Source: an uncultured Actinomycetes bacterium (lineage in GTDB: Bacteria > Actinomycetota > Actinomycetes > Streptosporangiales > Streptosporangiaceae). Taken from it: a stretch of 64,000 bases of DNA. Of the stretch, positions 10,450 to 63,999 are shown piece by piece. The DNA lies in NCBI GenBank assembly GCA_963769715.1, contig CAVYNE010000015.1, forward strand, positions 89,960-153,959, written 5' to 3'. Made by a program: the position numbers and the translations under genes. Each line of letters starts with the position of its first letter. Positions within the stretch are counted from its first letter, which is position 1. The notes beneath the pieces were generated by a model. That model had not been told where the DNA came from. It ran no database searches and saw only the letters and a list, made by a program, of their open reading frames with translations.

Positions 10450-10535
10450 CGGGCGGCGGTCTTAGGACTATTGACCCAGGCCGGGCTGGCCCGGGGGCCG
10501 ATGCGCGGGGACGCGACCGCGCCTAGCGTGAAGAC

Positions 10536-11243
10536 ATGAACGACAAACCGACAGCCATGATCACGGGGGCCTCCCGCGGGCTGGGCCGCGCGCTGGCGGC
10601 CGGCCTGGCCCGCGAGGGCTTTGCCCTCGTCATCGACGCGAGGAACGCCGCGGCGCTGGACGGCGCGGCGGAGGCGATCAGGGCCGCGGGCGGTACCGTC
10701 ACCGCCATCGCCGGCGACGTCACCGACCCCGCGCACCGCGCCGCCTTGCGGCGGGCCGCCGACGCCGCAGGCCGGCTTGACCTGCTCGTGAACAACGCCG
10801 GGACGCTGGGGGTCAGCCCGCTGCCCGCGCTGGCCGACTACCCGCCCGACGAACTACGCGCCGCGTTCGAGGTGAACGTGATCGCGCCCATCGCGCTGAC
10901 CCAGCTGATGCTGCCGCTGCTGCGCGCCGACGGCGGCGCGGTGCTGAACATCACCTCGGACGCGGCCGAACAGGCCTACGCCGGCTGGGGCGGCTACGGC
11001 GCGGCCAAGGCCGCCCTGGAGCAGGCCTCGAACGTGCTGGCCGCCGAGGAGCCCGGGCTCCGGGTCTGGTGGGCCGATCCCGGCGACCTGCGCACCGACA
11101 TGCACCAGCTGGCCTTCCCCGGGGCGGACATATCGGACCGCCCAGAACCCGAGTCGGTGGTCCCCGCATTCGTCAGGCTCATCTCGCAGCGCCTGCCGAG
11201 CGGCCGGTACCGCGCGGCTCACCTGATGCCGGCCGCCAGGTAA
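10536..11243 (+). CDS. Short-chain dehydrogenase/reductase (SDR)
   Basis: TGASRGLGRA, NNAG, and YGAAKAAL catalytic Tyr-x3-Lys. Confidence 0.85.
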   Translation: MNDKPTAMITGASRGLGRALAAGLAREGFALVIDARNAAALDGAAEAIRAAGGTVTAIAGDVTDPAHRAALRRAADAAGRLDLLVNNAGTLGVSPLPALADYPPDELRAAFEVNVIAPIALTQLMLPLLRADGGAVLNITSDAAEQAYAGWGGYGAAKAALEQASNVLAAEEPGLRVWWADPGDLRTDMHQLAFPGADISDRPEPESVVPAFVRLISQRLPSGRYRAAHLMPAAR

Positions 11244-11247
11244 CGCC

Positions 11248-12306
11248 ATGATCACCGACCTCGCCCGGTCCGATTTCACGCTGACCGACTTCACGCTGAC
11301 CGACTTCACCCTGCCCGCCGAGCTCGAGGCGCACGACCCGCCCGAGGCGCGCGGCCTGGCCCGGGACGGCGTCCGGTTGCTGGTCAGCCGCCGCTCGTCC
11401 GGCGAGATCGGCCATCACGGCTTCCGCGACCTGCCCGGCCTGCTGCTCCCCGGCGACCTGCTGGTCGTCAACACCACCGCGACGCTGCCCGCCCAGGTGC
11501 GCGCCCACGACGGGCTGGCCGTGCACTTCTCCAGCCCGCAGCCCGACGGCGCGTGGCTGGTAGAGCTCCGGCAGGTCAAGGGCAAGATCTCGATGCCGAA
11601 CGGTCCCGGCTCCCCCGATCAGTCCATCAGCCTGCCTGGCGGGGCGGTCCTGACCCTGGCGGGCAAGGCCACCGGCAGGCTCTGGCGGGCCCGGCTGTCG
11701 GCGGCGGTGGTGCCGTACCTACTGCGATACGGCATCCCGATCCGGTACTCCTACGTGCACCGCGAGTGGGCGCTGCCGTTCTACCAGACGGTGTTCGCGC
11801 GGGAGCCGGGCAGCGCGGAGATGCCGAGCGCCAGCCGCCCGTTCACGCCGTCCGTGGTCACCGCGCTGGTGGCCCGCGGGGTGCTGATCGCCCCGCTCAC
11901 CCTGCACACCGGGGTGTCCTCACTCGAGGCCGGCGAGGATCCGTACCCGGAGCCCTACGACGTGCCGCCCGCGACGGCCCGGCTGGTCAACCACGTGCGG
12001 GCGCACGGCGGCCGGATCATCGCCGCGGGCACCACCGTGGTCCGCGCGCTCGAGACGGCCGCGCTGGATCGCCCGGATGGCCAGGTGGCGGCCTCGGCGG
12101 GCTGGACGTCGCACGTGGTCACGCCGGAGACCGGGGTCAAGGTGGTGGACGGGCTGCTCACCGGGCTGCACGAGCCGCGTTCTTCGCATCTGCGGATACT
12201 GGCCGCGTTCGCCGGTCCCGGGCTGCTGAGCCGGTGCTACGAAACCGCGATCAGGTCCCGGTACCTGTGGCACGAGTTCGGTGACGTGCACCTGCTGCTG
12301 CCCTAA
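11248..12306 (+). CDS. queA: S-adenosylmethionine:tRNA ribosyltransferase-isomerase (QueA-like)
   Basis: DLLVVNTTATLPAQV, FYQTVFAREPGSAEMPSASRPFT, IIAAGTTVVRALE, GLHEPRSSHLRILAAFAG. These match my recollection of the QueA core motifs. The N-terminus carries a DFTLT x3 repeat. Confidence 0.75.
   Translation: MITDLARSDFTLTDFTLTDFTLPAELEAHDPPEARGLARDGVRLLVSRRSSGEIGHHGFRDLPGLLLPGDLLVVNTTATLPAQVRAHDGLAVHFSSPQPDGAWLVELRQVKGKISMPNGPGSPDQSISLPGGAVLTLAGKATGRLWRARLSAAVVPYLLRYGIPIRYSYVHREWALPFYQTVFAREPGSAEMPSASRPFTPSVVTALVARGVLIAPLTLHTGVSSLEAGEDPYPEPYDVPPATARLVNHVRAHGGRIIAAGTTVVRALETAALDRPDGQVAASAGWTSHVVTPETGVKVVDGLLTGLHEPRSSHLRILAAFAGPGLLSRCYETAIRSRYLWHEFGDVHLLLP
11272..11316 (+). repeat. In-frame 15-bp tandem repeat x3 (DFTLT DFTLT DFTLP) at the QueA-like N-terminus
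   Basis: gatttcacgctgacc / gacttcacgctgacc / gacttcaccctgccc. Confidence 0.95.
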
Positions 12307-12366
12307 CGCTGTCGGGGGCGGCCCGTGCTTCCTGGCCAGGGCCGTTCGGGTAGCCTGGCGCCCGCG

Positions 12367-13602
12367 ATGAATACTCCGCGGACCTCGCTGCTTATCACCC
12401 TGACCGGCCGGGACCGGCCGGGCGTGACCTCCAGGCTGTTCGCCATCCTGGCCAGGCATCCGGTCAGCGTGCTTGACGTCGAGCAGGTGGTGATCCGGGG
12501 CCGCCTGGTGCTCGGCGTGCTGCTCGGCTGCGACTCGCCGCCCGACCTGACCGGCATCCACGCCGCGATCACCGCGCTCGCCACCGATCTCGGCCTGGAA
12601 GCCGAGATCACCACGGGTTCGGCGGTCTCGGGCGATCCGGCCGCCCGCGCCGGGCGGCTGCACGTCACCCTGCTGGGCAGCCCGCTGGCGCCGGCCGCCA
12701 TCACCGCCATCGCCGGGCGGATCGCGGCCAGCGGAGCGAACATCGACCGGATCGGCAGGCTCGCGCAGCAGCCGGTGACGTGCATCGAGATGGACGTCTC
12801 CGGCGGGGACCCGGCGATGCTCCGCGAGGACCTGGCCCGCATCGCGGTCGAGCAGGGGATCGACGTGGCCGTCCAGCGCGGCGGGCTGCACCGCCGCGCG
12901 CTGCGGCTGATCGTGATGGACGTGGACTCCACCCTCATCCAGGACGAGGTGATCGACCTGCTGGCCGTCCGGGCCGGCTGCGCCGAGGAGGTGGCGAAGG
13001 TGACCGCGGCCGCCATGCGCGGCGAGCTCGACTTCACCGCGTCGCTGCGCGAGCGGGTGTCGCTGCTCGCCGGGCTCGACGCGCGGGTCCTCGACGAGGT
13101 CCGGGCCGAGCTGCGGCTGACCGCGGGCGCGCGCACGCTGGTCAGGACGCTCAGCGACCTCGGCTACAAATCGGGCATCGTCAGCGGCGGCTTCGTCCAG
13201 GTCATCGAGCCGCTGGCCGCCGAGCTCGGCATCGGCTACGTGGCCGCCAACGAGCTGGAGATCGTGGCCGGCAAGCTCACCGGGCGCCTGCGCGGCCCGG
13301 TGATCGACCGGGCCGGGAAGGCGGAGGCGCTGCGCCGGTTCGCCGCCGACGCCGGGGTCCCGCTGTCCCAGACGGTGGCGGTCGGCGACGGCGCCAACGA
13401 CCTCGACATGATCGCCGCCGCCGGGCTCGGCGTCGCGTTCAACGCCAAGCCCGTGGTGCGCGACGCGGCCGACACCTCGCTGAGCGTCCCCTACCTGGAC
13501 GCCATCTTGTACCTGCTCGGCATCTCCAGCGACGATGTGGCCGCCGGGCCCGCTGGGTTAGTTGCTGTGTCAGGTCACGTAGCCCGCTTCGTCATCGTCT
13601 GA
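12367..13602 (+). CDS. serB: Phosphoserine phosphatase SerB with N-terminal ACT-like repeats
   Basis: HAD motifs LIVMDVDSTLIQDEVID, SGGF, GDGANDLDM. N-terminal LITLTGRDRPGVTSRLFAILA. Start chosen at ATG 12367 (MNTPRTSLL...). The last ~25 aa (…AAGPAGLVAVSGHVARFVIV) look atypical. Confidence 0.85.
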   Translation: MNTPRTSLLITLTGRDRPGVTSRLFAILARHPVSVLDVEQVVIRGRLVLGVLLGCDSPPDLTGIHAAITALATDLGLEAEITTGSAVSGDPAARAGRLHVTLLGSPLAPAAITAIAGRIAASGANIDRIGRLAQQPVTCIEMDVSGGDPAMLREDLARIAVEQGIDVAVQRGGLHRRALRLIVMDVDSTLIQDEVIDLLAVRAGCAEEVAKVTAAAMRGELDFTASLRERVSLLAGLDARVLDEVRAELRLTAGARTLVRTLSDLGYKSGIVSGGFVQVIEPLAAELGIGYVAANELEIVAGKLTGRLRGPVIDRAGKAEALRRFAADAGVPLSQTVAVGDGANDLDMIAAAGLGVAFNAKPVVRDAADTSLSVPYLDAILYLLGISSDDVAAGPAGLVAVSGHVARFVIV

Positions 13603-13987
13603 GGTCTTCATCACGTTTAGCCATCCTGGCTGCGGGCCGACGTGCTCGGTCGGCAGCTAGGACGAGGACCGCTGCGTCTGCGTTAAGACAGCCAGCATGG
13701 CTGATCTCTCCGCCGGGCCTCAGCTTGCCCGGGGATCTGGACTGTGGGGATTCTGTGGGACACGGGCTCAACGGGTCGCTGCCCGAGAGGTTCGTCGCGC
13801 CGCCGGGCGTGACTAGGCCAGGAACGGGTTGAGGACCTGGGCGCCGTCGTATGCCTGGCCAGGGTTGAGGTCCCCCGAGTGCACGGTGCCGCAGCGGGGC
13901 GTCAAGCGGCTTGGGGATCTTCCGCGTCGTCGTGACGAAGAATCCGCGCCTACCTCGACCGGCTCCCCGATACCCAGGTACGTGCTC

Positions 13988-14116
13988 ATGGTCCGGTTGT
14001 CCGGCTCGCTAGCTCTGCTCGCGCGCAGCGACATCTCCAGGGACGTGGAGATGTCGGTGTTGCGGCACGAGGTCGCAGCGGAAGCGGACACGGCGAAGCA
14101 TTGGTATCAGTGCTGA
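13988..14116 (+). pseudogene. Possible N-terminal remnant of an IS/integrase-type transposase gene
   Basis: MVRLSGSLALLARSDISRDVEMSVLRHEVAA resembles the ...L(L/P)xSDxxKDxEILxLRH(Q/E)xxVL... N-terminus common in actinomycete rve-type transposases. It is only ~35 aa long and then stops. Confidence 0.3.
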
Positions 14117-14128
14117 TACCATAATCAC
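14103..14128 (+). promoter_or_regulatory. Perfect 8+8 bp palindrome (GGTATCAG TG CTGATACC) followed by CATAAT immediately upstream of the antitoxin ATG; candidate operator/-10 of a leaderless phd-doc transcript
   Basis: ggtatcagtgctgatacc at 14103-14120, ataatcac, then ATG at 14129. No room for an SD sequence. Confidence 0.4.
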
Positions 14129-14332
14129 ATGGCGATGACATTGCGGCTGGCTGACCATGAGACCCAGGCACTGCGCAGGCGAGCCGAACTGGAGCAGCGG
14201 TCGATGCAAGACGTGGCCCGGCAGGCCATCAGGGAGTACGTCGAGAATCACAGTCGCAGCGAACTGCTCGACCGCGTGCTCGATGAAGAGCTGCCCCGGT
14301 ACGCCGAGGCACTTGAGCGGCTCGGCCAGTGA
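14129..14332 (+). CDS. Ribbon-helix-helix antitoxin (Phd-role partner of Doc)
   Basis: 67 aa, MAMTLRLADHETQALRRRAELEQRSMQDVARQAIREYV. It overlaps the Doc gene by 4 nt. Confidence 0.8.
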   Translation: MAMTLRLADHETQALRRRAELEQRSMQDVARQAIREYVENHSRSELLDRVLDEELPRYAEALERLGQ

Positions 14333-14709
14333 TCTACCTGACGCTGCCCGAACTGCTCCATGTTGCCGAGCGCACCCTCGGGGCCGATTTCATCGTGCGC
14401 GATTACGGCTTGCTGGAAGCCGCTCTCGCCCGCCCCCAGGCCACCGCCTTCGGCAAGGATGCCTACCCCACGCCGGACGGCAAGGCGGCAGCGCTGCTGC
14501 ACTCGCTCGCACGCAACCACGCCCTCATCGACGGCAACAAGCGGCTTGCGCTAGCGGCACTCATCGCCTTCTACGGCCTCAACGGCCGCCGCCTGACCCT
14601 GACCAACGATGCCGCGTACGACCTGGTAGTCAACGTCGCATCCGGGCAGCTCGACACCGCAGACGACATCGCCGCGATCCTTCAGGCCGCAACCGAGCCC
14701 CGTAACTAG
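14329..14709 (+). CDS. doc: Fic/Doc-family death-on-curing toxin
   Basis: Doc motif HSLARNHALIDGNKRLA (H-x-F/L-x-D/N-G-N-K-R). Confidence 0.9.
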   Translation: MIYLTLPELLHVAERTLGADFIVRDYGLLEAALARPQATAFGKDAYPTPDGKAAALLHSLARNHALIDGNKRLALAALIAFYGLNGRRLTLTNDAAYDLVVNVASGQLDTADDIAAILQAATEPRN

Positions 14710-14873
14710 CACACTGGCCACCAGCCCGGTGAGCGCGCTCCGGCATATCTCAGCAGGCACCAGCCGCTCTCAGCAGGCGCCAGCCGCGTCATAATGCCCG
14801 GACTACCGGATGCCGGCGATCGACCCCGATCCCGCGGGCGGGCTGGCCTGGGCGCCACGGTATGCAACTCCGG

Positions 14874-15239
14874 TCAGCGGATCTGCCGGATGGTTTCCCC
14901 GCTTTCCCAGCCAGTGTCCGCTGTGTACACGATGGCGTTGAGGCGGCGTCCGAGCGCGAGGCATAGCCGGTCCGCGAGCGACAGGCTGCTTCCCGATGTC
15001 CAGGTGACGGCGGCCTCCTCGGCGTCCTCGACGCTGACCGGCTCGAGATGAAGGCCGTAGCTGGCGAGCAGCGCCCTGGCCAGGTCCCAGTCGCGGCCGT
15101 GCGCCCTGATCTTCTGGGCGACCTCGGACCAGTTTGCCGTGCCGCATGTACCGCCGGCGCTAAGACCCGTCTCGACGGCCGCAGAGCCGTCTTCTCCCTG
15201 CAGGAACGCGAGCAGGGCGGACGCGTCGAAGACGTTCAC
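14874..15239 (-). CDS. vapC: PIN-domain toxin VapC
   Basis: MNVFDASALLAFL... (N-terminal acidic D) and ...LSLADRLCLALGRRLNAIVYTADTGW. It overlaps the upstream antitoxin by 4 nt. Confidence 0.85.
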   Translation of the reverse strand: MNVFDASALLAFLQGEDGSAAVETGLSAGGTCGTANWSEVAQKIRAHGRDWDLARALLASYGLHLEPVSVEDAEEAAVTWTSGSSLSLADRLCLALGRRLNAIVYTADTGWESGETIRQIR

Positions 15240-52076: not shown

Positions 52077-52847
52077 ATGGCGGCACAGGCACAGGCACAC
52101 GACATCGTTACCGCGGCGAAGGCGCGGCCACCGCGGCGCGGGGACCCCGGGGCACGGCGCGGGGACCCTGGGACGGTCCAGCTCAGCCAGCGCGACATCG
52201 ACGGGCTCCTGCTCTGCGGCGAGCACTACGGAGTCCCGTACGATCTGCTCGCCGGCGCGCTGCGCGTCCACTCCAAGCGGCTGGAAAAGATCACGGCCCG
52301 GTGGCGCCGCGCCGGGTACGTGGCCACCGGGCGGCTCGGCCCGGGCCCGTCGTGGTGCTGGCTGACCCGGGACGGGATGACCGCCACCGGGCTCGGCTTC
52401 CCCGCGGGCCGCCCGGCCCTGGCCCGCCTGGCGCACATCCGCGCGGTCCTGGCCGTCCGGCTGTGGCTGGCCGCCGGGCCCGCCTGGACGGACGGCCGGG
52501 CGTGGTGGCACTCCGAACGGCGGCTGCGCGCCGCCCAGCCGGCGGCCGGCCGCCACGAGCACATCCCGGACGCCGAGATCCACTGGCCCAGCATCGAGGG
52601 CAGCCCGTATGCGGGGCAGGTCTGGGCGATCGAGGTCGAGCTGACGCCCAAGCCGATCGCCCGGACCGCCGGGATCATGACCGGGCTGCTGACCCCGATG
52701 CAGTACGCCACGGTCGTGTACCTGACCGCACCGGCCGCCCGCCCGGTGGTCCTGCGGGCCGCGGCCTCGCTGCCGCCCGGGGAGCAGGTCAGGGTCGCGG
52801 TCCGGGACCTGCCGGCCGCCGCGTTCACCCCGGAGCCGTCGCGATGA
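52077..52847 (+). CDS. Replication-relaxation (Replic_Relax)-family protein
   Basis: LSQRDIDGLLLCGEHYGVPYDLLA (wHTH-like), LAHIRAVLAVRLWL, and a PD-(D/E)xK-like HIPDAEIHW...VWAIEVELTPK. The stop overlaps the next start (ATGA). Confidence 0.6.
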   Translation: MAAQAQAHDIVTAAKARPPRRGDPGARRGDPGTVQLSQRDIDGLLLCGEHYGVPYDLLAGALRVHSKRLEKITARWRRAGYVATGRLGPGPSWCWLTRDGMTATGLGFPAGRPALARLAHIRAVLAVRLWLAAGPAWTDGRAWWHSERRLRAAQPAAGRHEHIPDAEIHWPSIEGSPYAGQVWAIEVELTPKPIARTAGIMTGLLTPMQYATVVYLTAPAARPVVLRAAASLPPGEQVRVAVRDLPAAAFTPEPSR

Positions 52848-54728
52848 GCGTCTGGTCATGGCTCAAGCTGAGCGTGTGCCTGTGGCTGCTGCGCAAGATG
52901 ATCAAGGGGACAGGGTGGCTGCTGCTGGCCGGCCTGGCGGTCGCCGTCTGGCCGGTCACCGCCGTGGCGGTCACCGGGTACGTCGCGGCGTGGCTGCGCG
53001 GCTGGCCGCCGGTCCGTTTGGGCCGCGTCGCCGCCGCCGCCCTGCCGCTGACCGTCATCTGGCTCGGCGCCGAAGGAGCCCGGCATACCGCCTGGCAGGC
53101 CATCGCGCTGGCTCCCGTCCGGGACTGGGCGCACGGGTGGCACCACCTCACGCTCACCGGCGTGACCCGGACGTTCCTGCTGGTGGCCCCGGTCGCGATC
53201 CCGGTCGGGCTCGGGCTGGCCGCGCTGGCGTGGGGGTGGCGGATCTACGCGCTGACTACCGGGATCGGCGGCTGGCTCGCCTCGGCGCCGATCACGTTCG
53301 ACGCCCGGCAGTGGAAACATCAGGTCCGGACGGCCAGGGGCCGGACCGCCGCCCCGGGCAGCGTCCCGTTGCTGGCCCGGGGCGCGCGGATCGGTGTCGG
53401 CGGCACCATCCGTGCCATCGGGCACCGCTGGCACCCAGTCTTCACCGTCCCGCACGCGGCGTGCGCCCGGCACATGGTGATCGTCGGCGCGACCGGCAGC
53501 GGGAAGACGAACCTGATGATGCGGCTGTGGGCCGGCTGGTTCACCGCCGCCCTGGCCGCGGCCCGGCCCCAGAATGCGGGGCGGGGCCACCGGCCGCTGC
53601 TGGTCGTGCTGGACTGCAAGGGCGGACCGGACGCCCGGACCAAGGCGAACCGCACCCGCCGCCTGCTGTACGGCGCGGGCGCCCGCCGCGTCGCGATCTG
53701 GCCCGACGAGGCGCGGCTGTCCCTATGGAATCTTCCGCCGAACGATCTGGCCGTCTTGCTCTACCAGATGATCGACAGTGGCACCGGGGCGGCCGCCTAC
53801 TACGCCGACATCCTGCAGGCCGTCCTCACTCTCGCCATCATGGCGCCCGGCGGCCCGCCACTGAACGCGGCCGCGTTCACTGATCGCCTGGACGTTAGGT
53901 GGCTACAGCGCGCCTGGGGGGACGGCCGGCACGCGGAGGAGCTGGCCCGGGTGCGCGGCGCGGCCCGGCACCTGCCCGACATCCAGCTCCGGTTCGCCAC
54001 CCTGCTCGGGCGGCTCGGCCCGGCGCTGGACGGCCCGGGGACCCTGGCCGACGCCGACGCGTGGTACTTCATCCTGGAAGGCACCCGCGAGCCGTCGGTC
54101 GCCGAGGCCCAGGCCATGGCCATCACCGAACTGGCCGCGCACGCGGCCACGGACCTGGCGAGCGAGCCGCGGGCGATGCTGCTGGCCGCCGATGACTACA
54201 GCGCCGTGTCCCGCCGGGTGCCCCTGTCCAACCTGTACGAACGCGGCCGGTCCCTGGGGATAGGAGTGCAGGTTTCCGCCCAGACCTGGCAGGGCCTGGG
54301 CCGGGACGAGGACGAGCGGTACCGGATCGCGGCCACCGCCGACGGCGGCATCTTCCTCATGCACACGCCCCACCCGGAGCCGCTGGCCGCGCTGGCCGGG
54401 CAGCGCCGGGTGCTGCAGACCGCGCACGAGTTCGTCGGCGCCACCTGGGGCGACCGGGGCACCACCCGGGAGGGGCGGGCCTGGAACGCCGACCCCGACC
54501 TGATCCGCCGCCTGCAGGTCGGCCAGGCCTGCTACATCCACCGGGGCGCGGCCACCTTCGTCCAGGTCGCCCGGCCCGTGGCCTCCCCGCTCGGCCTGCT
54601 CCCCGCGCGGGTCCCGGTCGACCTGCCCGCCCCCCGCCGGGAAGCCGCTGTCCGCGGTATCCGGGTCCGAGCCGATCCCGGCCAACCTCAACGATGTCCT
54701 CGGACCTGGAGGCTCCCGATGGCCGTGA
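52844..54728 (+). CDS. Type IV coupling protein (VirD4/TraD/TraG-like), apparent frameshift near a C6 run (54630-54635)
   Basis: N-terminal TM helices, Walker A VGATGSGKTN, LLVVLDCKGG, MLLAADDYS, and RGRSLGIGVQVSAQTWQGL. After ~54640 the G/C third-position bias moves to the +1 frame, which ends at TGA 54726-54728 (...PIPANLNDVLGPGGSRWP*). Confidence 0.65.
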
Positions 54729-55235
54729 ACCCGTTCGACGCGCTCGGCCTGCCGGCCCGTCCCGACCTGACCGATGAGCAGGTCCGCGCCGCCTGGCGCG
54801 CCATCGCCGCCGCCACCCACCCGGACCGGCCCGGCGGCGGGGACGTCGCCCGCTACACTGCAGCCACCGCCGCCTACGCCGTGCTGCGCACGCCCTGGGG
54901 CCGCAGCGAGGCCTTCGCCGACTTGGGCGCTGACGATCGACGACACCACTCCGCTACCCGCCGTCGATGCCGCCGGCCCGGGGCCCGCCGCCCGGCCGTC
55001 CCGGCCATCCTGGTCCGCCCGGCCGGGGGATCTGATCGCGGCCATGGGGCAGCTGCCCGCCCGGATCCGTCACGGCCGCCCGCTGCGCCTGGTCATCCGG
55101 GCCCTGGCCGCCGCGCTGCTGTGCCTGGCCGTGCTGGCCTTGATCCCCGGCCAGCCCGCCGCGCCGGCGCTAGTGACCGGCCTGATTACCTGGTTCCTGC
55201 TTACCGGCCGCTCGGACCTGGCACCCCCGCCGTAG
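54719..55235 (+). CDS. J-domain (DnaJ-like, HPD motif) protein with hydrophobic C-terminal part; needs a frame change near 54900-54930
   Basis: ATG 54719 comes after GGAGG. MAVNPFDALGLPARPDLTDEQVRAAWRAIAAATHPDRPGGGD...AAYAVLRTPWGR. The downstream codon bias and TM-like LRLVIRALAAALLCLAVLALIPG...LITWFLL lie in the +1 frame, which ends at 55235. Confidence 0.5.
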
Positions 55236-55288
55236 TCCGGGTGCGCACCAAGGCTAATACCGATACTGCCTTATGGTCCTGATGATGA

Positions 55289-55864
55289 TTACGCGGAGAC
55301 GGTCACTTGGGCCAGCGACAGCACGAGCTGGCGGACGAATGCGGCCGGGTCGGGCCACGGGAAGCGTGGTAGCGCCGCGCGCAGGCTGACGGTCCCGTGC
55401 AGGGCGACCCACACGGCGGTGGCATCGGCGACGACGTCGGTGCTCGCGGAGACCCCTGCGGCGGCGCAGTCCTCGATGGCCTGGACGAGGAGCGCGAATG
55501 ACTGGGCCCCGAATTCGAGCACCGGTCGGCCGTCAGGCCCGATCGGGACCGGCTTGCAGTAGTCCGGCGCGGTCGGCCGCTGCGTGGAGAACAGCACGCC
55601 GTAACGGGCGGGGTGCTCGAGCCCGAAGGCCACATACGCCTCGCAGCCTGCGACCAGGCGGCCGGCCGGATCCTGGCCGGCCGACTTCTGGCCTTGCTCG
55701 ATCGCCTGGGTCAGCTCGTCGAAGATCCGGACGACGACAGCCATGAGGACGGCGTCCCGGTCCGGGAAGTGGGCGTAGATCGACGGGGCGGCGATACCGG
55801 CCTCCCGGGCGACCGCGCGCAGCGTGACCGCCTCCGCCGAGCCGGTCCGGCGACCTGCGCGCAC
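55289..55864 (-). CDS. TetR/AcrR-family transcriptional regulator
   Basis: HTH VTLRAVAREAGIAAPSIYAHFPDRDAVL. Confidence 0.85.
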   Translation of the reverse strand: MRAGRRTGSAEAVTLRAVAREAGIAAPSIYAHFPDRDAVLMAVVVRIFDELTQAIEQGQKSAGQDPAGRLVAGCEAYVAFGLEHPARYGVLFSTQRPTAPDYCKPVPIGPDGRPVLEFGAQSFALLVQAIEDCAAAGVSASTDVVADATAVWVALHGTVSLRAALPRFPWPDPAAFVRQLVLSLAQVTVSA

Positions 55865-55956: not shown

Positions 55957-56757
55957 TTAGAGTGACCGCTGCCTGAGCCAGTCCAGCGCTGCCTGCGCGA
56001 CCTCGCGCCAGCCGTGGTCGATCGTCAGCGAGTGGCCGCGATCCGGGAACTCGAGGAAGTCGGTGATGGCCGGTGACTTGTGGTAGAGCTTGCGGGTCGA
56101 CGTCGTGATGGCCGCCGGTACGGTGTGATCGTTGCCCCCGGCCGTGAGCAGCAGCGGCCCGCGGGTCTTGTTTGCGGTATTCACCTTCGCGGGCGACCGC
56201 GCGGTGAAGTTCGCCAGGGCGGCTTCGAACAGCGGCTTGCCTGGCGAGGGCACGGTCCAGCGGTCATACAGCTCAGCTGACTCCTGCTCGGGAAGCGCGT
56301 TCCCGAAGCCGTACCGGAACTGTTCCGCGGTGAGGGATATCGCCAGGTTACGGTTGGCTGGCTTGCGCAGCGCGATCGAGGCGACTTTGAGCGCGGAAAC
56401 GGGCAGTTTGAGCACGCCCTTGATGGGCGCAGCGTCGATCGCCACTGCGGCAGCGGCCAGGTCCTGGCCGAGCAGCCGCTGCGCGATGAGACCCCCGAAG
56501 GAGTGGCCGATGACGACCGGAGGGGCCTCAAGCCCGCGGATGATCCGGGCGTAGTGGCCGACCACATCGTCGATGCCCTTGCCCGCCACCTGGCCGGGGT
56601 CCCGGCGGCTGTCCTCCACCGTGTCCGAGTCACCTGGCCAGCCCGGTGCTGTCGGTGCGTAGCCCGCCTCCTGGAACAGTTCTAGCCACGGGTCCCACGA
56701 GCTGGCATGCAGCCATAGGCCATGAACAAACACTGCGGGCCTGCCTGGTTGTGTCAT
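55957..56757 (-). CDS. Alpha/beta hydrolase
   Basis: VFVHGLW, nucleophile elbow GHSFGG, and C-terminal DRGHSL. Confidence 0.85.
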   Translation of the reverse strand: MTQPGRPAVFVHGLWLHASSWDPWLELFQEAGYAPTAPGWPGDSDTVEDSRRDPGQVAGKGIDDVVGHYARIIRGLEAPPVVIGHSFGGLIAQRLLGQDLAAAAVAIDAAPIKGVLKLPVSALKVASIALRKPANRNLAISLTAEQFRYGFGNALPEQESAELYDRWTVPSPGKPLFEAALANFTARSPAKVNTANKTRGPLLLTAGGNDHTVPAAITTSTRKLYHKSPAITDFLEFPDRGHSLTIDHGWREVAQAALDWLRQRSL

Positions 56758-56925: not shown

Positions 56926-57345
56926 TCATACTGCGCATGTGGGGGTGCGGGCTAACGACTCGGCGTCGTGGAAGTCACGCGTGTAGTCCGACCGGGGAGC
57001 CGGAAGCACGACCTCCAGACGCGAGCCCGACTCGGCCAGCAATTCGCGCGCCACCAGTCGGTCGGCCCCCTCGGCCAGGGAAGACACCGCCACCAGGACA
57101 ACATCCGAGCCTGCGCCCTCCGGGAGCATGTCCCTGAGCAGTCGCACCGCCTCCCGGATAGCCGGGACGAGCGCCTCCGGATCACCCAGGCATCGATGCC
57201 CCGTTATCCCGATCCGGAGAACAAACGGGATCCTCCCCTGGCCGTCCGGGCGGAGCCCGGCAGCCTGGTCATCGCCGCCAGGCATAGGACGGGCAAGGGA
57301 ACCCGTGTGATTACGGCTGGCGCTGTTCAATCGTCGGCCCCTCAA
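56926..57345 (-). pseudogene. Truncated SLOG/DprA-LOG-like Rossmannoid domain gene (motif-level assignment)
   Basis: RIGITGHRCLGDPEALVPAIREAVRLL...VVLVAVSSLAEGADRLVARELLAESGSRLEVVLP...DYTRDF, then a premature stop. No continuation in other frames. Confidence 0.4.
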
Positions 57346-57398
57346 GATGCAGGCATTCCGGATTAGGAATTCGCTAATGCCATTCGTCTAAGTCCATA

Positions 57399-57740
57399 TC
57401 ACTGCCTGCACAGTCGCTGGTACGGTAGTTGAGGATATAAGTTTGTCACTGCTGGGCCGCGAGTTCCGGCTGTGGTACAGATCCGTTTAGTAGCGTAATC
57501 GACGTTCAGGTTCCGTAGCCGGATCGCCCCGTCAATGATGCCGCTGGCCAGCGCGTGGCCATCTGGGCTGAACGCGACCGATACGGCAGCGCCAATGCCG
57601 TCGGTCAGGAGCGGCCCGAGCAGGTGGGGGGCGCCGGATCGGCGGCATCGGTCAGCCAGACATTGCCGTCCAGGTCAGCACTCGCCAGCGTACGGCCATC
57701 GGGGCTGAACGCCACAGCCAGGACAGACTGGCATCGCACT
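57399..57740 (-). pseudogene. C-terminal remnant of a WD40-repeat protein gene, frameshifted at a G6/C6 run (57626-57631)
   Basis: SVLAVAFSPDGRTLASADLDGNVWLTDAADPA, then a shift, then LLGPLLTDGIGAAVSVAFSPDGHALASGIIDGAIRLRNLNVDYATKRICTTAG...LPYQRLC* (stop at 57399-57401). This is the typical C-terminal ending of actinomycete STAND-WD40 proteins. Confidence 0.7.
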
Positions 57741-58343
57741 GTGCTGCAGCAGATCCATATCATCGATGCTGTCCGATCGCTCTTGCGATGTGTTTCTCCG
57801 CTCAGCACGTGGAAGCTTCAGCAACTCCCATCGGCCCAGTCCAGAGGGCACCTTTCGCGTCGACGCGCCCGACCGCAACCCTATTTACGCGGTGGATTAA
57901 CGCTTAGTGCCACGGACAACCTGCCCGCCGGAAAGTCGATGCTGGTCCTGGGCGAATCGGAGCGGCTCGCAGGTGGATCTAGAAGGCGCTCGAACGGCCA
58001 GACGTCGACGGAGAGGCTACATGTTGGCTCGCTCGGCGTTATCATCCAGTGTCGGCAGGTGTCCAGATCACAATGCCTGGTTCTGGGCATGCCCAGTAAG
58101 TGACGGAGTTCCTGCACCGGCCCAGCGGCGCTCTCGGTTTGTGGCGTAGGAGGAACAGCAACTGGCCCGGTGTGGTGCGATTCCATGAAATGGAGTTGAT
58201 CATGTTGACGCTCACGCCGGGCCTAATGCCGTTCACGCCAACTCTACGCGAAACAGTAACACTCTGACCTTCTCGGCGTATACTGGCTAAGAGGAGTGCA
58301 AGGGGGAATCTTGGGCTACCCGGTCGGTCAAGCGTCGTGCCTC

Positions 58344-58378
58344 GCCGAGCGCACGCTCGGCTTGGATTTGGTTTTCCC
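58344..58378 (+). terminator. Intrinsic terminator-like hairpin upstream of the TIR-SIR2 gene
   Basis: GCCGAGCG ca CGCTCGGC followed by TTGGATTTGGTTTTCCC. Confidence 0.5.
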
Positions 58379-58630
58379 GCTGTTGTTGACGGACGTGGTT
58401 GTTCAGCGGGCTTTCCCTGATACGCGGGCTTCTCTGCGCTGGGCCGGTGCCGGTTGCGGGCTGTACGCACGTGTCGGCCCGCGTCGGGTTCAGCGGCCGG
58501 AGCAGCGCGTCTTGGGTCGCGTTACACCCCAGGCTCTGGAAGCTCGGCGCTCGTGTCCGGGGATCGGCACAGTTTCTGTCGGGCTCCAGTCGGATCGGCA
58601 ACCCTAGACCAGGGCGCGCAGGGGCAGGGC

Positions 58631-60169
58631 ATGGATATGGGTGGCTCGCACGAGACCGAAGGCGGCTTTTCTGATACGCCGCCAGCCAAATCGCCACTTA
58701 GGGTCTTCATCAACTACCGCCACGAGGACACGCAAGGCACGGCGTGGGCGCTTTATATGAAGCTCGAGGTCCGGTTTGGCGCTGAGAACGTGTTCTTCGA
58801 CAACGGCACACTCCGGCCGGGGATGCTATGGCTGAACGAGATCAGATCCCATCTGGCCGACGGTGGCGCGTTCATCGCGCTGATTGGACAGAACTGGATG
58901 CCGAGCCTGAGAACTCATCTGCACCGCGGTGGCGAGGACTATGTCTCCAAGGAGATCGACCTTGCCCTGCGCAGCGGCCCACGAATGATCGTAATCCCCG
59001 TACTAGTGGACGATACCGAGCTGCCGAATCCTCGCGAGCTTCCGCCGTCATTGAGTAAGCTTTTGGATTGCCAGCAAGAGCGTTTGCGCCACACGCACTT
59101 GCGTCATGACATCGACCATCTGATTGCGCGCCTCGGTGAGGCTCGAGACGAACCGGAACCGGTCGTCGTGGGTCCTGTTCATCCACCTCGGCGGCGTACT
59201 GGGTCCGAGTTCGTTGCTCCGCGTCCTGATGAAGATCACTACCGAATGGTGGCCAGGCATGCCGGCAACCTCGTCGTCTTCCTCGGCGCGGGCGCGAACG
59301 CGGACCGCGATGAGCCCTGGTCGCCGGGCTCGGGGATGCTCCCCGACGACCGGGACCTTGCGAAGTACCTCGCGTCGCACGTTGGGCTGAAGGGCGCGCC
59401 CATGCACTTGGCTGAAGTCGCGCAATATGCGGGTGCGGTCTACGGTGAAACGGAATTGTTCGACTGGATCACTCAGGTTCTGAAGGTCGATTCAGAGCCG
59501 AGCCCTGTGCACAGATATCTCGCGCATCTTCCCGAACGACTAGGAAGACGCTGCCAGATGATTGTCACACCGAAGTATGACGCGGTGCTGGAAAAGGCAT
59601 TCAGGGAAGCAAACGAGGACTTCGACCTAGCCGTCTACATGGCCCCCGGGACAGAACAGGCAGGCAGGTTCGTCCACCTGCCATGGGGGGAGCTTCCGCG
59701 GCCAATCGACAAGCCCAACGAGTACGCGGGGTTTCCAATCGCCGCCGAGGACCGCAGGCTGCAGCGCACGGTGATCGTCAGAATCAGCGGCGCGGTTGAT
59801 GATCCGTCGGCAGGCTTCCCATGGGAAGACAATTACGTGATCACCGAGGATCACTATATTGACTACCTGAATGGCCGCTCGGCGGAGGAGGCCGTGCCCA
59901 GCCAGCTCCTCGCGAAGTTGAGGAAAGCAAACTACTTGTTCCTCGGCTACACGATCGCCGATTGGCGCCTCAGGGTCTTCCTGCAACGGATCTGGAAGGG
60001 CGCCAGACTCGGGCGCGCCAAGTACTGGGCGGTCGAGCAGGAGCCTGACGTGCTCGAGAGAGACCTCTGGCAGCAAGCGGGCGTCAGCCTCTACCAGAGC
60101 AGCCTGACCGATTACCTGAAGGGACTTTACGACTTCCTCGATGACCACCCCGGCGAAGCGCAGCGATGA
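58631..60169 (+). CDS. TIR-domain / SIR2-like (SIR2_2-type) two-domain protein
   Basis: TIR: LRVFINYRHEDTQG...ENVFFD...FIALIGQNW...DYVSKEIDLAL...VIPVLVDD. SIR2_2-like: NLVVFLGAGAN, IVTPKYDAVLEKAF, VIVRISGAVDD, NYVITEDHYIDYL, YLFLGYTIADWRLRVFL. Start chosen at ATG 58631, with the RBS weak. Confidence 0.85.
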   Translation: MDMGGSHETEGGFSDTPPAKSPLRVFINYRHEDTQGTAWALYMKLEVRFGAENVFFDNGTLRPGMLWLNEIRSHLADGGAFIALIGQNWMPSLRTHLHRGGEDYVSKEIDLALRSGPRMIVIPVLVDDTELPNPRELPPSLSKLLDCQQERLRHTHLRHDIDHLIARLGEARDEPEPVVVGPVHPPRRRTGSEFVAPRPDEDHYRMVARHAGNLVVFLGAGANADRDEPWSPGSGMLPDDRDLAKYLASHVGLKGAPMHLAEVAQYAGAVYGETELFDWITQVLKVDSEPSPVHRYLAHLPERLGRRCQMIVTPKYDAVLEKAFREANEDFDLAVYMAPGTEQAGRFVHLPWGELPRPIDKPNEYAGFPIAAEDRRLQRTVIVRISGAVDDPSAGFPWEDNYVITEDHYIDYLNGRSAEEAVPSQLLAKLRKANYLFLGYTIADWRLRVFLQRIWKGARLGRAKYWAVEQEPDVLERDLWQQAGVSLYQSSLTDYLKGLYDFLDDHPGEAQR

Positions 60170-63100
60170 GCGAGCTTCCAGGAACGGTTAGGCCTCGCGA
60201 CTGCCCGTACGTCGGCCTAGATTTCTACCAGGAGAAATTCGGTGCCTGGTTCTTCGGACGGGAGGCCGAGCGCGACAAGATCATCACTAACCTGCAGGCC
60301 GCCCGCCTGACGCTCCTGCACGCCGAGAGCGGCGTCGGCAAGAGTTCGCTGTTGCGCGCGGGTGTCGCGTGGCAGCTGCGCCGACAGATCACGCGCCGGG
60401 GAACCCTCCAGGGCGCAGCCGTTGACGTCCCGGTCGTCTTCAGCTCGTGGCAGGACGCTCCCGTCCTGAAGCTAGTCGGGGCGATCCGAGAGGCGATCGA
60501 GCCGTTGGTGACCGGCCATTCCGAGCCCGAGCTGCCGACCCATCGGCTCGACGCCGCAATCGAGGCGGCGGCCGACGTCGCGGACGCTGGCCTGCTCGTC
60601 ATCCTCGACCAGTTCGAAGAGTACTTCCTCTACCGTTCCCGAGAGCCCGTCCCCGAGCAGTTTGCTGATGAACTCGCCCGCTGCGTCAACCGGGCTGATC
60701 TTCCCGTCAATTTCCTTATCGCGATCCGCGAGGACGCGTATGCGGGCTTGGGTGACCTTTTCAAGGGCCGGATCGCCAACGTCTACGGAAATTATCTCCA
60801 CATCGACTACCTCGATCGGGCGTCGGCGGAGAGGGCGATCCGGCAGCCCCTTGCGGTCTACAACGGCCAGCCTGGCATAACTGAGCGCGTCGAGATCCAA
60901 GACGAGCTCGTCGAGGCGGTGCTCGACCAGGTAAGGGCCCATGATGTCAGCGACCTGGTCCAAGGCGAGGCGACGGCCGCTGACGGCGGCGGGCGTATCG
61001 CGACCCCGCTGCTGCAACTGGTGATGGAGACGATCTGGCAGCGAGATCGCGACGCGGGCTCCCGTGAGCTGCGGCTGGCGACGCTGCAGAACCTGCAGGG
61101 CGTCGAGAAGATCGTCGATACCCATCTTTGGAAGGCGCTCCGCGCCCTTGGCGGCCGAGAGCGCCAAACCGCGATCGACGTGTTCGACCACCTCGTGACC
61201 CCTTCAGGTGGGAAGATCGCGGAACCGGTCCCCGACCTGGCGCGTCGGACTGGTCACAGTGAGGAGCAGGTCGGCAGCGTCTTGGAGAAGCTCGATCATG
61301 CGCGTGTGGTCAGGCCACTCCCGGCGCCGCCGGGCCAGGATCCCCAGCGGTTCCGCCGCTACGAGATCTTCCACGACGTACTCACGCCGGCGATCAACCG
61401 CACGATCGCTGTACGTGAGGAGCGGCGCCGCGCGCGGCGGTTCCGACGCTTGACTGCGCTAGCAGTCAGCCTGCTGATCGTGACCACGGCGATCGGGGGT
61501 GGCATCTTCTACTTGTATCGCACTGCGATTACCCAGAAGCAGGCCGCGGATTCGGGCCAGTTGGCCGCAGCTGCGGACGCGAACCTCGCGCGCGATCCAG
61601 AGCTCAGCGCACGGCTGGCTCTGCAGGCACTGCGCCTGCGCTACACGAGCGCGGCGGAGGCGGCGCTGCGGGACGCGCTCCCCAAACTTCAGGCGGTGCG
61701 GACGTTCCAGGACGGGACTTTGGTGTTCTCGGCAGCATTCGATCCAGTCGACCCGAACAAGGTCGCCAGCGCCGATAAGGATGGAGCAGCCTGGATCTGG
61801 GACGTCCGGACCGAGCGCCGCCTTGTGCGCCTGGCACCCGTGGGCGCCTCCGGGAATGCTGGAACCGCCGACACTGTGGCCTACAACCCGGCCGGTACCA
61901 AGGTAGCGGTCGGCTATGCAAACGGCACGGTGGCCTTGTTCGACGCCGCCAGCGGGAAAGAGCGGCAGCCGATCACAGTCGGACCGGTAGTCACGATCAC
62001 GGTCGGACCGGTAGTCAAAGGTGTCCAGTTCGTCGGGAGCACCGGCGAGCTGGCGATCGCAACGCAGCGCGGTGTCGGCCTGTGGCTGCCCGAGTATGGG
62101 TCAAGGTGCTGCGACATCCTGTCGCGGACCGAGCAAGCAAACAGCATCGCCGTCGACCCAGGCAACCCGCTGGAGTTCGCCGTGGCCACGGACAATGGCA
62201 CGGTCATCTGGACCCTGCGAGGCGACCTAAGCCCCGCGCAACACAGATCGCTAGATACGCGCTCCGACAACGATGCGGAGTTCAATCCAGACGGCAGGGA
62301 AGTCGTAACCGCTGCCACCGACGGGAAAGTGCGGGTATACGACCTCGCCACCTTTCAGGAGAAAATGACCCTCGACGCGGGCGAGGCTAACGTCCTGAAT
62401 GCGGCGTTCAGTCCGGACGAAACGCGGATCGTGGCAGCGTACTCGAGCGGGACGGCGCGCGTATGGGACGCCTCAAGCGGACTCCCGTTGGCGCTGCTCG
62501 TCGGCCACGCCTCGTCTGCCGGGAGCGCCAGGTTCAACGCCGACAGCAACGAGGTGGTGACGGCAGGCAATGACGGCACGATCCGTGTCTGGCAGGCCCA
62601 GCCGCGCGAGCTGCGGACCGCGTTTCCCAGCTCGTTCAGCGGTGGCAGCCCGAACCTGCCGAACCCTGTTTATGCGGCCAAGTACAGTCCTGAGGGCGGC
62701 CGGATACTCACCGTTGACAGCTCGGGAGCTGCCTACCTGTTCACGGCCGGCGGCGAGCCGGTCTACTCCCACGGCCTGCCGGTCCTCATCTACCCCGGCG
62801 CGAAAGTGAACTCGGCGCGGTTCAATCGCGCCGGCACGGAGATAGTCACGGCCGACTCGGACGGGACGGTAAACCTGTGGAATGCCGGCGGCCCGGACTA
62901 CGCCCAGATCCGCCTTCCGGTACCGATCCACCTGAAGGGCCCGGCGGACTACGCCGATTTCGGTCCAGATGGGTCCCAAATGGTAATCGTGACCAGCGAT
63001 GACAAGGTGGAGGTACGAAGCACCCGGACCGGCCAGCTGCTGCGGACGCTCAATCCCCAGCACGGATTTCCCCTCTCGGTGGCCGTGTTCAGCCCAAACG

Positions 63101-63999
63101 GGCGACAGATCCTCACTGGGGATGGCAACGGCCAGGTGGAGATATGGGACGCCGCCACTGGACGCGAAATCCGGGTGCTTGACACACCTGGTCCCGTCAG
63201 CGACGTTGAATTCAACAGCCGCGGCAGCGAGTTCGTCACCACGTCTGATAGCGGCGCGGTAACTATGTGGTCCGCGCGCGACGACCGGCCGCTGAATGGC
63301 CCGTTCAATGCGTGCCCGACACCCAGCACAGCCTCGTTCAGCCCCGATGGCAGCAAGCTGGTGGTTGCCTGCGGGAACGGCAACGTGCCAGTGTTCAACA
63401 CCGTCACCGGCCAGCAGCTAACTGCGCTGCCGGCAACCAGCGCAGGGACTGCCAACAGTGCCGAATTCAGCCCGGACGGCAAGAGCATCGTCACGGCCAT
63501 CGGCGGCGAGGATAGCGGTGACGTGCGGGTCTGGAATACCGAGCTCGCGACAGCCTCGCTTCAGGCCCTCGAACTGGAGGCTGCCGGGAGCGCCGTGAAA
63601 CCGGGTTTCGCCTCGACCGCCAGTCCAGAGGCCGCGATCCTGAACGGCACCTGGACCGGCTCCTACGACTGCCCCCAGGGTGCGACCGGGCTCAGCCTTG
63701 TGATCCATGCGATCCCTGGCGGCACCCTCACGGCGGCATTTAACTTCTATGCCGTCCCGCATCACCCTAGTATTCAAGGCAGCTTCACGATGACCGGTAC
63801 CTACTCGGCCGCGGGAGTTGATCTGAGCCGGAGTCAATGGATCAGCATCAGCCAACCCTTCGAATACATCATGGTGGATCTCAGCGCTGGCCTGCCCGCC
63901 AAAGGCGGGACGGTCCTCAGCGGCCATGTCGCGACTCCAGGACTGAATGTTTGCACTACCTTCGCCGTGACAAAATCCGCTTCGAGCGGGTCAGGTTGA
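60166..63999 (+). CDS. nSTAND-type P-loop NTPase - hydrophobic helix - ~14 WD40 repeats - unassigned C-terminal domain (1277 aa)
   Basis: CPYVGLDFYQEKFGAWFFGREAE, Walker A ESGVGKSSLLRAG, Walker B LLVILDQFEEYF, PLLQLVMETIW, and hydrophobic LTALAVSLLIVTTAIGGGIFYLY. Repeated ...FSPDG...(V/I)(R/E)(V/I)WD... units. ATG 60166 overlaps the upstream stop (ATGA). Confidence 0.9.
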   Translation: MSELPGTVRPRDCPYVGLDFYQEKFGAWFFGREAERDKIITNLQAARLTLLHAESGVGKSSLLRAGVAWQLRRQITRRGTLQGAAVDVPVVFSSWQDAPVLKLVGAIREAIEPLVTGHSEPELPTHRLDAAIEAAADVADAGLLVILDQFEEYFLYRSREPVPEQFADELARCVNRADLPVNFLIAIREDAYAGLGDLFKGRIANVYGNYLHIDYLDRASAERAIRQPLAVYNGQPGITERVEIQDELVEAVLDQVRAHDVSDLVQGEATAADGGGRIATPLLQLVMETIWQRDRDAGSRELRLATLQNLQGVEKIVDTHLWKALRALGGRERQTAIDVFDHLVTPSGGKIAEPVPDLARRTGHSEEQVGSVLEKLDHARVVRPLPAPPGQDPQRFRRYEIFHDVLTPAINRTIAVREERRRARRFRRLTALAVSLLIVTTAIGGGIFYLYRTAITQKQAADSGQLAAAADANLARDPELSARLALQALRLRYTSAAEAALRDALPKLQAVRTFQDGTLVFSAAFDPVDPNKVASADKDGAAWIWDVRTERRLVRLAPVGASGNAGTADTVAYNPAGTKVAVGYANGTVALFDAASGKERQPITVGPVVTITVGPVVKGVQFVGSTGELAIATQRGVGLWLPEYGSRCCDILSRTEQANSIAVDPGNPLEFAVATDNGTVIWTLRGDLSPAQHRSLDTRSDNDAEFNPDGREVVTAATDGKVRVYDLATFQEKMTLDAGEANVLNAAFSPDETRIVAAYSSGTARVWDASSGLPLALLVGHASSAGSARFNADSNEVVTAGNDGTIRVWQAQPRELRTAFPSSFSGGSPNLPNPVYAAKYSPEGGRILTVDSSGAAYLFTAGGEPVYSHGLPVLIYPGAKVNSARFNRAGTEIVTADSDGTVNLWNAGGPDYAQIRLPVPIHLKGPADYADFGPDGSQMVIVTSDDKVEVRSTRTGQLLRTLNPQHGFPLSVAVFSPNGRQILTGDGNGQVEIWDAATGREIRVLDTPGPVSDVEFNSRGSEFVTTSDSGAVTMWSARDDRPLNGPFNACPTPSTASFSPDGSKLVVACGNGNVPVFNTVTGQQLTALPATSAGTANSAEFSPDGKSIVTAIGGEDSGDVRVWNTELATASLQALELEAAGSAVKPGFASTASPEAAILNGTWTGSYDCPQGATGLSLVIHAIPGGTLTAAFNFYAVPHHPSIQGSFTMTGTYSAAGVDLSRSQWISISQPFEYIMVDLSAGLPAKGGTVLSGHVATPGLNVCTTFAVTKSASSGSG
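61972..62019 (+). repeat. In-frame 24-bp tandem duplication (ITVGPVVT / ITVGPVVK) inside the WD40 region
   Basis: atcacagtcggaccggtagtcacg / atcacggtcggaccggtagtcaaa. Confidence 0.95.

Follow-up and report, generated by a model that had tools for sequence, protein, structure and literature searches.

A predicted pseudo-sirtuin domain in a TIR-SIR2 protein encoded beside an nSTAND1 gene in an uncultured actinomycete

We analysed a gene for a protein with an N-terminal TIR domain and a C-terminal SIR2-like domain in the window, that is, the whole stretch of 64,000 nucleotides taken from a contig (CAVYNE010000015.1) of an uncultured Streptosporangiaceae bacterium. In the SIR2-like domain both catalytic residues of the active defence sirtuins are replaced, Asn by Lys and His by Ser, while the domain as a whole is conserved no less than the TIR domain beside it. 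We regard it as probable that this domain is a pseudo-sirtuin, kept to couple the N-terminal effector, here a TIR domain predicted to hydrolyse nicotinamide adenine dinucleotide (NAD+), to the sensor encoded by the downstream nSTAND1-WD40 gene. A SIR2 or TIR domain in a defence locus is usually taken, in annotation, for an NAD-depleting effector. For the large SIR2_2 group described here, which comes mostly from soil Actinomycetota and lacks the sirtuin catalytic dyad, function prediction from the name of the SIR2 domain alone would mislead. The elements of the gene are the following.

58631..60169, plus strand: TIR-SIR2 gene, its SIR2 part a predicted pseudoenzyme; 512 residues, from the ATG at 58631 to the TGA at 60167-60169
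58703..59146, plus strand: TIR domain, residues 25-172 (Pfam TIR_2; phmmer against SARM1; secondary-structure elements of the AlphaFold2 model from E25 to H172)
58952..58954, plus strand: codon of E108, the predicted TIR catalytic glutamate
59147..59227, plus strand: disordered linker, residues 173-199, at the domain junction in the alignment; predicted local distance difference test (pLDDT) below 50 at residues 175-192
59228..60145, plus strand: SIR2-like (SIR2_2) domain, residues 200-505, predicted to be non-catalytic (Pfam, Foldseek, profile against PDB)
59285..59299, plus strand: GAGAN, the Rossmann glycine-rich motif, G219-N223, aligned with GAGVS of DSR2
59561..59581, plus strand: IVTPKYD motif, residues 311-317, with K315 (codon 59573-59575) in the catalytic Asn column
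59771..59803, plus strand: VIVRISGAVDD motif, residues 381-391, with S386 (codon 59786-59788) in the catalytic His column
59939..59974, plus strand: FLGYTIADWRLR motif, residues 437-448, with R446 where intact relatives, KomC and DSR2 have Asn

Fold and catalytic columns of the SIR2-like domain

The open reading frame (ORF) spans 58454-60169 (+) and opens at a TTG (58454), the likeliest start being the ATG at 58631. The product from this ATG is 100% identical to a database protein (P0001), a sequence that occurs in several assemblies. Pfam recognised TIR_2 at residues 25-141 (E 2.8e-10, 41.2 bits against a cutoff of 28) and SIR2_2 (PF13289) at residues 310-487 (E 2.1e-14, 54.2 bits against a cutoff of 24.5). 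The AlphaFold2 model, built with 47 homologues (mean pLDDT 80.6), contains two folded domains joined by the disordered linker. When its SIR2-like part was compared with solved structures by Foldseek, KomC came out best (E 1e-10, template modelling (TM) score 0.68 on the target), followed by ThsA, DSR2, SIR2-HerA, SPARSA and Avs5, the E values for KomC, ThsA, DSR2 and SIR2-HerA ranging from 1e-10 to 1e-8. In the predicted structure, then, the C-terminal domain has the defence-type SIR2 fold, a sirtuin/Rossmann-like fold resembling the solved defence SIR2 domains, and the proposal of an initial annotation of this DNA that the sirtuin fold is retained is borne out by the model.

The same annotation, working from an alignment by eye, had read IVTPKYD and VIVRISGAVDD in this domain and taken them for the blocks that carry the catalytic residues. 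Both motifs are present as described. The sub-coordinates given for them (59567-59581 and 59780-59794) do include K315 and S386 but cover only TPKYD and RISGA. Active defence sirtuins carry a catalytic Asn (ThsA N112, DSR2 N133) and, within K-x-H-G, a catalytic His (ThsA H152, DSR2 H171, KomC H146); the window protein has K315 in the former column and S386 in the latter. Three kinds of alignment agree on this register. Because a single-sequence search of the PDB gave alignments to the SARM1 TIR alone, a domain-only family profile, built from 22 sequences, was run against the PDB sequences instead. Here the family string ivtpkYD pairs with IYTTNYD of KomC and ITTNYD of DSR2, and tvivrinGavdd with TQIIKFNGDFDD of KomC(H146N). 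In the ungapped BLASTP alignment to P0143, a full-length TIR-SIR2 relative of 42% identity (E 7e-121), QMIVTPKYD lies opposite QLIVTTNYD and VIVRISGAV opposite VIVKIHGAV. Finally, in a hidden Markov model (HMM) alignment of 196 family members, the 85 members that retain both residues, which we call intact relatives, have N in column 315 (85/85) and H in column 386 (85/85). The consensus among the 150 best family representatives is likewise the canonical IVTTNYD and IVKIHGA. A shifted register that would restore Asn or His was looked for in the profile, pairwise and family alignments, and none was found. The by-eye reading of Lys for Asn and Ser for His thus holds. Two further positions depart from the intact state: R384 stands where intact relatives have Lys (99% conserved), and HMMER aligns FIGYSLSDINIR of KomC and FIGYGLGDYNIN of DSR2 with the motif that contains R446.

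In DSR2 the substitutions N133A and H171A abolish NAD+ hydrolase (NADase) activity (PMC11087589), and in KomC H146A abolishes defence (PMC13454610). On these grounds, loss of sirtuin-type NAD+ hydrolysis from the SIR2-like domain of the window protein is a reasonable inference. It could still be supposed that the domain works as a NADase or ADP-ribosyltransferase through non-canonical residues, the protein then being a double NAD-consuming effector. Such a view would draw on the strong overall conservation of the domain, on loci in which a helix-turn-helix (HTH)-SIR2 protein and nSTAND1 occur with no other candidate effector, and on the conserved, basic K315 and R384 where the catalytic centre used to be. 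However, every tested defence sirtuin, as in the DSR2 and KomC experiments just cited, needs both Asn and His; the two columns vary within the clade of the window protein described below (K, N, Q or T in one; N, S, G or K in the other), unlike catalytic residues; and a comparison of this clade with the active proteins, at the 93% level, disclosed no replacement His or Asn gained specifically by it. We therefore think residual catalysis very unlikely. H408 of the TEDHY motif was considered as a relocated catalytic His and rejected: it is invariant in close homologues, but the position holds H, D, Q or N in active relatives.

As for the TIR domain, the initial annotation had pointed to the Glu of DYVSKEIDLAL as preserved. 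This residue, E108, indeed aligns with the Glu of HKEIVTAL in SARM1 and so corresponds to SARM1 E642, in a domain that the TIR_2 model recognises. The Glu is present in 51/51 members of the clade described below. The best reading of the TIR domain is that it is the predicted NAD-cleaving enzyme of the window protein. Its description as the only enzyme leaves the STAND NTPase of the system out of account.

Conservation of the domain and changes in its pocket

With an exhaustive profile search, 3380 cluster representatives were retrieved at E <= 1e-3, 703 of them at E <= 1e-30; the wider family comprises ~700 clusters at 50% identity. In a neighbour-joining tree of 176 SIR2-like domain sequences the window protein falls in a monophyletic clade of 61 leaves, with 115 sequences outside it. 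In this clade, hereafter the substituted clade, His is found in the His column of 0/61 members (N in 72%, and S, G or K in the remainder), and the Asn column holds K in 49/61 (80%) and N, Q or T in the remainder, whereas both residues are retained in 85/115 members outside it. Substitutions of the K315/S386 type mark a monophyletic clade and are not a matter of chance. Across the domain tree, independent losses of His are seen several times, different clades having Y, N, S, L or R in its place. Among close relatives position 386 toggles between N and S and position 315 between K, Q and T; a protein of 85% identity (P0002), for example, has N where the window protein has S386. Besides these, one locus (L030, 5060-7963) has a tandem TIR-SIR2 pair before a single nSTAND1 gene, the first protein reading STTFD/KIHG (His kept, Asn lost) and the second TSKFD/RING (both lost).

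The domain around these columns is under purifying selection and is not decaying. More than 1100 close homologues retain the SIR2-like domain at full length, at least 40 positions are invariant, and within the clade the mean pairwise identity is 64% for the SIR2 part against 60% for the TIR part, the former exceeding the latter in 80% of pairs. Because the domain is conserved at least as well as the TIR domain while its catalytic positions are lost, the pattern reads, as far as sequence conservation can tell, as that of a pseudoenzyme kept for some purpose other than catalysis. Frameshifted or split genes do occur in the family (L025, L027, L035 and L047) and might suggest a functionless, decaying relic, or else an artefact of alignment or sequencing. 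Such an explanation is contradicted by the conservation just described, and also by the agreement of three independent alignments and by the identity of the window protein to a database entry from several assemblies; we give it hardly any credence.

What has changed within the substituted clade is largely confined to one place. Some 66 positions are conserved at 85% or more in the intact relatives, and the clade preserves about 55 of these. Where it departs from them, it does so mostly around the former catalytic centre: T314 becomes P, N315 becomes K (variably), Y316 is relaxed, K384 becomes R and H386 becomes N or S. A further change is N446 to R, the column holding R in 95% of the clade against N in 60/85 intact members, and D240 has been gained where active proteins have Gly or Ala. 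In the glycine-rich motif, every clade member has G219 and N223, and position 221 holds G, D, A, E or R.

These changes bear on a second explanation, in which the domain has lost catalysis but not ligand binding: NAD+, ADP-ribose or a nucleotide made by the TIR domain would occupy the remodelled pocket and regulate the TIR domain allosterically, the SIR2-like domain acting as a sensor or feed-forward switch and not mainly for docking. Pocket-lining G219, N223, T313, D317, G387 and the GY..D motif are retained, and the clade has gained the conserved charges D240, R384 and R446 together with K315. The titles of PDB entries add that the clade's consensus residue at the His column, Asn, is the very substitution that traps NAD fragments in KomC(H146N), and that DSR2(H171A) still binds NAD+. 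The SLOG-SLATT gene found beside five related operons (see below) would also make nucleotide signalling plausible. Yet the same His-less module is fused elsewhere to caspase, CHAT, kinase, PNP and HTH domains, none of which makes an ADP-ribose signal; since the module also occurs without TIR, sensing of a TIR product cannot be what all its versions have in common. A tuned binding site would not be expected to differ between close relatives as positions 315 and 386 do. The second Gly of GxG is D, E, R or A in 8/19 genome loci of the clade, although R at this place is also found in presumably active GSRVN relatives that have both N and H. On balance we hold ligand sensing by the domain to be unlikely. 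The initial annotation had offered three roles for it: of these, a docking surface and an oligomerisation scaffold are favoured by comparative genomics, and NAD or ADP-ribose sensing cannot be common to the variants without TIR.

The nSTAND1 partner and the exchangeable N-terminal domains

The TIR-SIR2 gene is followed at once by its presumed partner.

60166..63999, plus strand: gene of an nSTAND1 NTPase with a WD40 beta-propeller; nSTAND1 at residues 14-428 (E 1.2e-41), and several WD40/beta-propeller matches
60331..60345, plus strand: Walker A motif GVGKS, residues 56-60 of the nSTAND1 protein, read from the sequence

The ATG at 60166 overlaps the stop codon of the TIR-SIR2 gene (ATGA at 60166-60169), and the gene extends past the window end at 63999. 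It has the NTPase domain, the intact Walker A motif and the C-terminal repeat sensor of an nSTAND1 system; nSTAND1 was named and defined in the work of Kaur et al. on STAND conflict systems (Kaur et al. 2020 PMC7159879, Kaur et al. 2021 PMC8195603). The ~140 residues after the last WD40 match (63574-63999, +) match no Pfam family and continue beyond the window end; they may be an extra sensor or accessory domain.

The same arrangement recurs widely. In 36/36 related loci from representative genomes the SIR2-like gene is directly followed by an nSTAND1 gene in the same orientation, and the window locus likewise has its SIR2_2-type gene directly upstream of, and co-oriented with, nSTAND1. These loci span Actinomycetota, Cyanobacteria, Myxococcales, Chloroflexota and Acidobacteriota, the genomes being those of uncultured soil Actinomycetes, Solirubrobacterales, Streptosporangiaceae, Acidimicrobiaceae, Acidobacteriaceae, Anaerolineae and Myxococcales and, among cyanobacteria, of Nostoc, Anabaena, Mastigocoleus and Crocosphaera. 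In P0241, P0244 and P0265, nSTAND1 and a C-terminal SIR2 domain are naturally fused in one protein. A supposed third gene at one locus (L007) proved to be the split WD40 part of its STAND gene. At another (L003) the nSTAND1 part of the partner was not called, and a gap at 9572-10494 precedes an ORF with WD40 only; 2 kb upstream of the TIR-SIR2 gene of this locus, which belongs to the substituted clade, lie MAP3K_TRAF_bd/TPR-S and LSDAT_prok (SLOG-family) genes (4111-6221).

The domains N-terminal to the SIR2 module are exchangeable. TIR forms the majority, and caspase C14, CHAT, protein kinase, PNP_UDP_1 and HTH domains occur as well. The caspase C14 version (P0122) lies inside the substituted clade and has an EACC1 gene upstream (L010, 3-2334). 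The CHAT version comes from Anabaena minutissima (L042, 5642-10961), where a Trypco2/Pepco gene is followed by CHAT-SIR2 (His to Tyr) and then by nSTAND1. EACC1 and Pepco are protease-activated pore toxins (PMC12642450), so that the SIR2-like module there occupies the place expected for regulation or sensor coupling. In the HTH version P0063 the SIR2 part is 84% identical to that of the window protein, and the exchange of TIR for HTH falls exactly at the linker.

Loss of Asn or His is recurrent where a second effector domain is fused, and the domain nonetheless stays strongly constrained. In the genome loci such loss was found in 0/6 standalone SIR2 proteins against 22/29 N-terminally fused ones (Fisher p = 0.001), and among 50%-identity representatives in 13/57 against 41/89 fused (p = 0.005), counts that are not phylogenetically independent. 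Three apparent standalone proteins with a substituted SIR2 domain (P0136, P0072 and P0055) were set aside: a separate or frameshifted TIR ORF lies immediately upstream of each, and they are therefore no exceptions to the pattern of loss with an effector.

Docking or oligomerisation is favoured by the nSTAND1 linkage, the nSTAND1-SIR2 fusions and the interchangeable N-terminal domains taken together. We propose that the ancestor would have been an active SIR2 NADase effector paired with an nSTAND1 receptor, and that lineages adding a second effector may have let the sirtuin centre lapse, the domain being kept for coupling to STAND, for oligomerising, or both. The WD40 propellers of the STAND protein would recognise a ligand derived from the invader, and the NTPase, by what is known of STAND biology, would oligomerise. 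The SIR2-like module might then dock on STAND, self-associate, or both; ThsA, DSR2, KomBC and Avs5 form tetramers or filaments, and the tetrameric core of DSR2 and ThsA is made by their SIR2 domains (PMC11087589). The TIR domains so clustered could form composite active sites and cleave NAD+, leading to its depletion or to a signalling nucleotide.

Several points weigh against this coupling role. Docking and oligomerisation are deduced from gene linkage and domain architecture only, and the linkage itself is not absolute, because the caspase-SIR2 locus L010 has no nSTAND1 downstream. The window STAND protein contains no recognisable adaptor or SIR2 domain through which a homotypic contact could be made. 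The HTH-SIR2 variants (P0063, P0226 and P0228) have no obvious enzymatic effector, and in them the SIR2-like domain could do more than dock. Moreover, the conserved charged residues gained by the clade, D240, R384, R446 and mostly K315, look as if the pocket had been remodelled and not simply left to decay, which would fit a new ligand.

Two further loci are of interest in respect of pairing. In L049 (4885-9237) the first gene encodes an intact SIR2 protein that stands alone (TTNYD/KIHG), and the nSTAND1-HEAT protein encoded after it has a C-terminal SIR2 domain of its own that lacks the His (KING); L050 (4482-10410) is arranged in the same way, but its STAND-borne SIR2 reads KLSG (His to Ser) and a second nSTAND1 gene follows. 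This arrangement hints at homotypic SIR2-SIR2 pairing.

Surroundings of the operon and relation to known systems

A gene of ~600 residues adjoins the operon at five distinct loci of the substituted clade (L006/L017, L013/L015, L023, L024 and L035). Its N-terminal part is SLOG-like, with the motifs RIGVTGHR, SLAEGADRLVA and GGT and weak Pfam matches to the SLOG families YAcAr, YpsA and DprA; its C-terminal part is a two-transmembrane SLATT domain (DUF4231 in 5/5, SLATT_1 in 4/5, best E 1.1e-8). In L006, where the P0111-type operon of three genes spans 8001-14877, the start of this gene overlaps the STAND stop; in L023 the gene is found immediately upstream, in the same orientation. The TIR domain in some of these relatives may signal to the SLOG-SLATT protein as a membrane effector, by analogy with Thoeris; the linked gene would suggest that the TIR product serves as a signal and not only for NAD+ depletion. 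The window retains a trace of such a gene.

56950..57246 (within 56926-57345), minus strand: truncated SLOG-like/SLATT remnant, ~100 of ~630 residues (hmmsearch E 2e-23, HMM positions 61-161 of 633)

Judging from this remnant, the SLOG-SLATT signalling arm appears to have been lost in the window locus. Between it and the start of the TIR-SIR2 gene, in the poorly coding stretch 57350-58630, an isolated WD40 fragment (57605-57808, -; Pfam WD40, E 7.6e-6) with no intact gene around it is probably debris of another STAND-WD40 gene. Farther upstream lie a large ORF (52301-55282, +) with weak, sub-threshold matches to HerA/FtsK-type P-loop (DUF87, FtsK_SpoIIIE) and DnaJ-like domains, a TetR gene (55289-55864, -) and an alpha/beta hydrolase gene (55957-56757, -). 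A pair of TetR_C_33 and hydrolase genes also flanks the L007 operon, which may reflect conserved synteny or a mobile-element context.

A broader scheme would join these threads. It takes the sirtuin fold to have become, by exaptation, a general nSTAND1 adaptor for interchangeable effectors; the pocket of the clade, rebuilt with K315, R384, R446 and D240, might hold the domain locked or accept a new ligand; and the three-gene version would be a STAND-triggered, Thoeris-like TIR signal to SLOG-SLATT in which the sirtuin is structural. We offer it tentatively, as a rather unlikely possibility. In any case, the family offers a natural series for the recruitment of effectors by STAND proteins: intact standalone SIR2, TIR with intact SIR2, TIR with substituted SIR2, and caspase, kinase or HTH with substituted SIR2.

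No PADLOC model matches the window system, the STAND partner or the SLOG-SLATT protein. In the literature searched, including the passages of PMC7159879 and PMC8195603 that term searches returned, we found no description of a sirtuin-fold adaptor or of a TIR-SIR2 fusion with a degenerate SIR2. Within that literature, the window system is a previously undescribed variant of the known TIR/SIR2/STAND systems.

With ThsA, DSR2, KomC and SIR2-HerA the window protein shares the motif layout GAG..., TTNYD, K-x-H-G, T-E-D-x-Y and G-Y-x-x-x-D, and PADLOC matched it to ThsA at 4.9e-8, a likeness at the level of the domain only. It differs from the class of ThsA, DSR2 and KomC in having Lys for Asn, Ser for His and Arg for the Asn of the C-terminal D-x-N, and from defence sirtuins in having no SLOG, Macro, HerA or KomB partner domain but an N-terminal TIR and an nSTAND1-WD40 partner instead. 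Like Thoeris, in which ThsB supplies the TIR and ThsA a SIR2-SLOG protein, it brings TIR and SIR2 together in one system, and the SLOG-domain gene linked to some relatives recalls the signal sensing of ThsA. In the window, however, TIR and SIR2 are fused, the SIR2 protein lacks SLOG or Macro and the catalytic residues, and the sensor is a STAND NTPase; the SLOG partner of the relatives bears a SLATT membrane domain, and the window holds only its remnant. Because SLOG and Macro are absent from the SIR2 protein and the NCBIfam model of Thoeris ThcB4 scores 15 bits against a cutoff of 220, we do not assign the system to Thoeris.

Avs5 resembles it in combining a SIR2-fold module with a STAND NTPase that has a C-terminal repeat sensor, and EfAvs5 (9jap) was matched by Foldseek at E 1.4e-6. 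Yet the SIR2 of Avs5 is an active effector fused to STAND, whereas that of the window is a separate, translationally coupled protein without Asn and His, the NTPase belongs to the nSTAND1 clade with WD40, and the predicted enzyme is the TIR domain. Since SIR2 and STAND are separate polypeptides and PADLOC gave no Avs match for the STAND protein, the system is not Avs5. To SARM1 the likeness lies in the TIR domain, aligned over ~140 residues including the catalytic Glu (Foldseek TM score on the target 0.77-0.81); the window protein is bacterial and has neither ARM nor SAM, its oligomerisation presumably coming from the SIR2-like module and the STAND protein.

In organisation it resembles the STAND conflict systems with effector-associated adaptor domains (EADs) and inactive enzyme modules (iSTAND), in which a constant non-catalytic module links interchangeable TIR, caspase, kinase or PNPase effectors to an NTPase sensor (PMC7159879, PMC8195603). 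In contrast to the EADs, which are Death-like or alpha-helical, the candidate adaptor of the window is a sirtuin-fold pseudoenzyme, and the STAND partner usually carries no matching copy. It is to such a sirtuin-fold pseudoenzyme adaptor that the family as a whole points.

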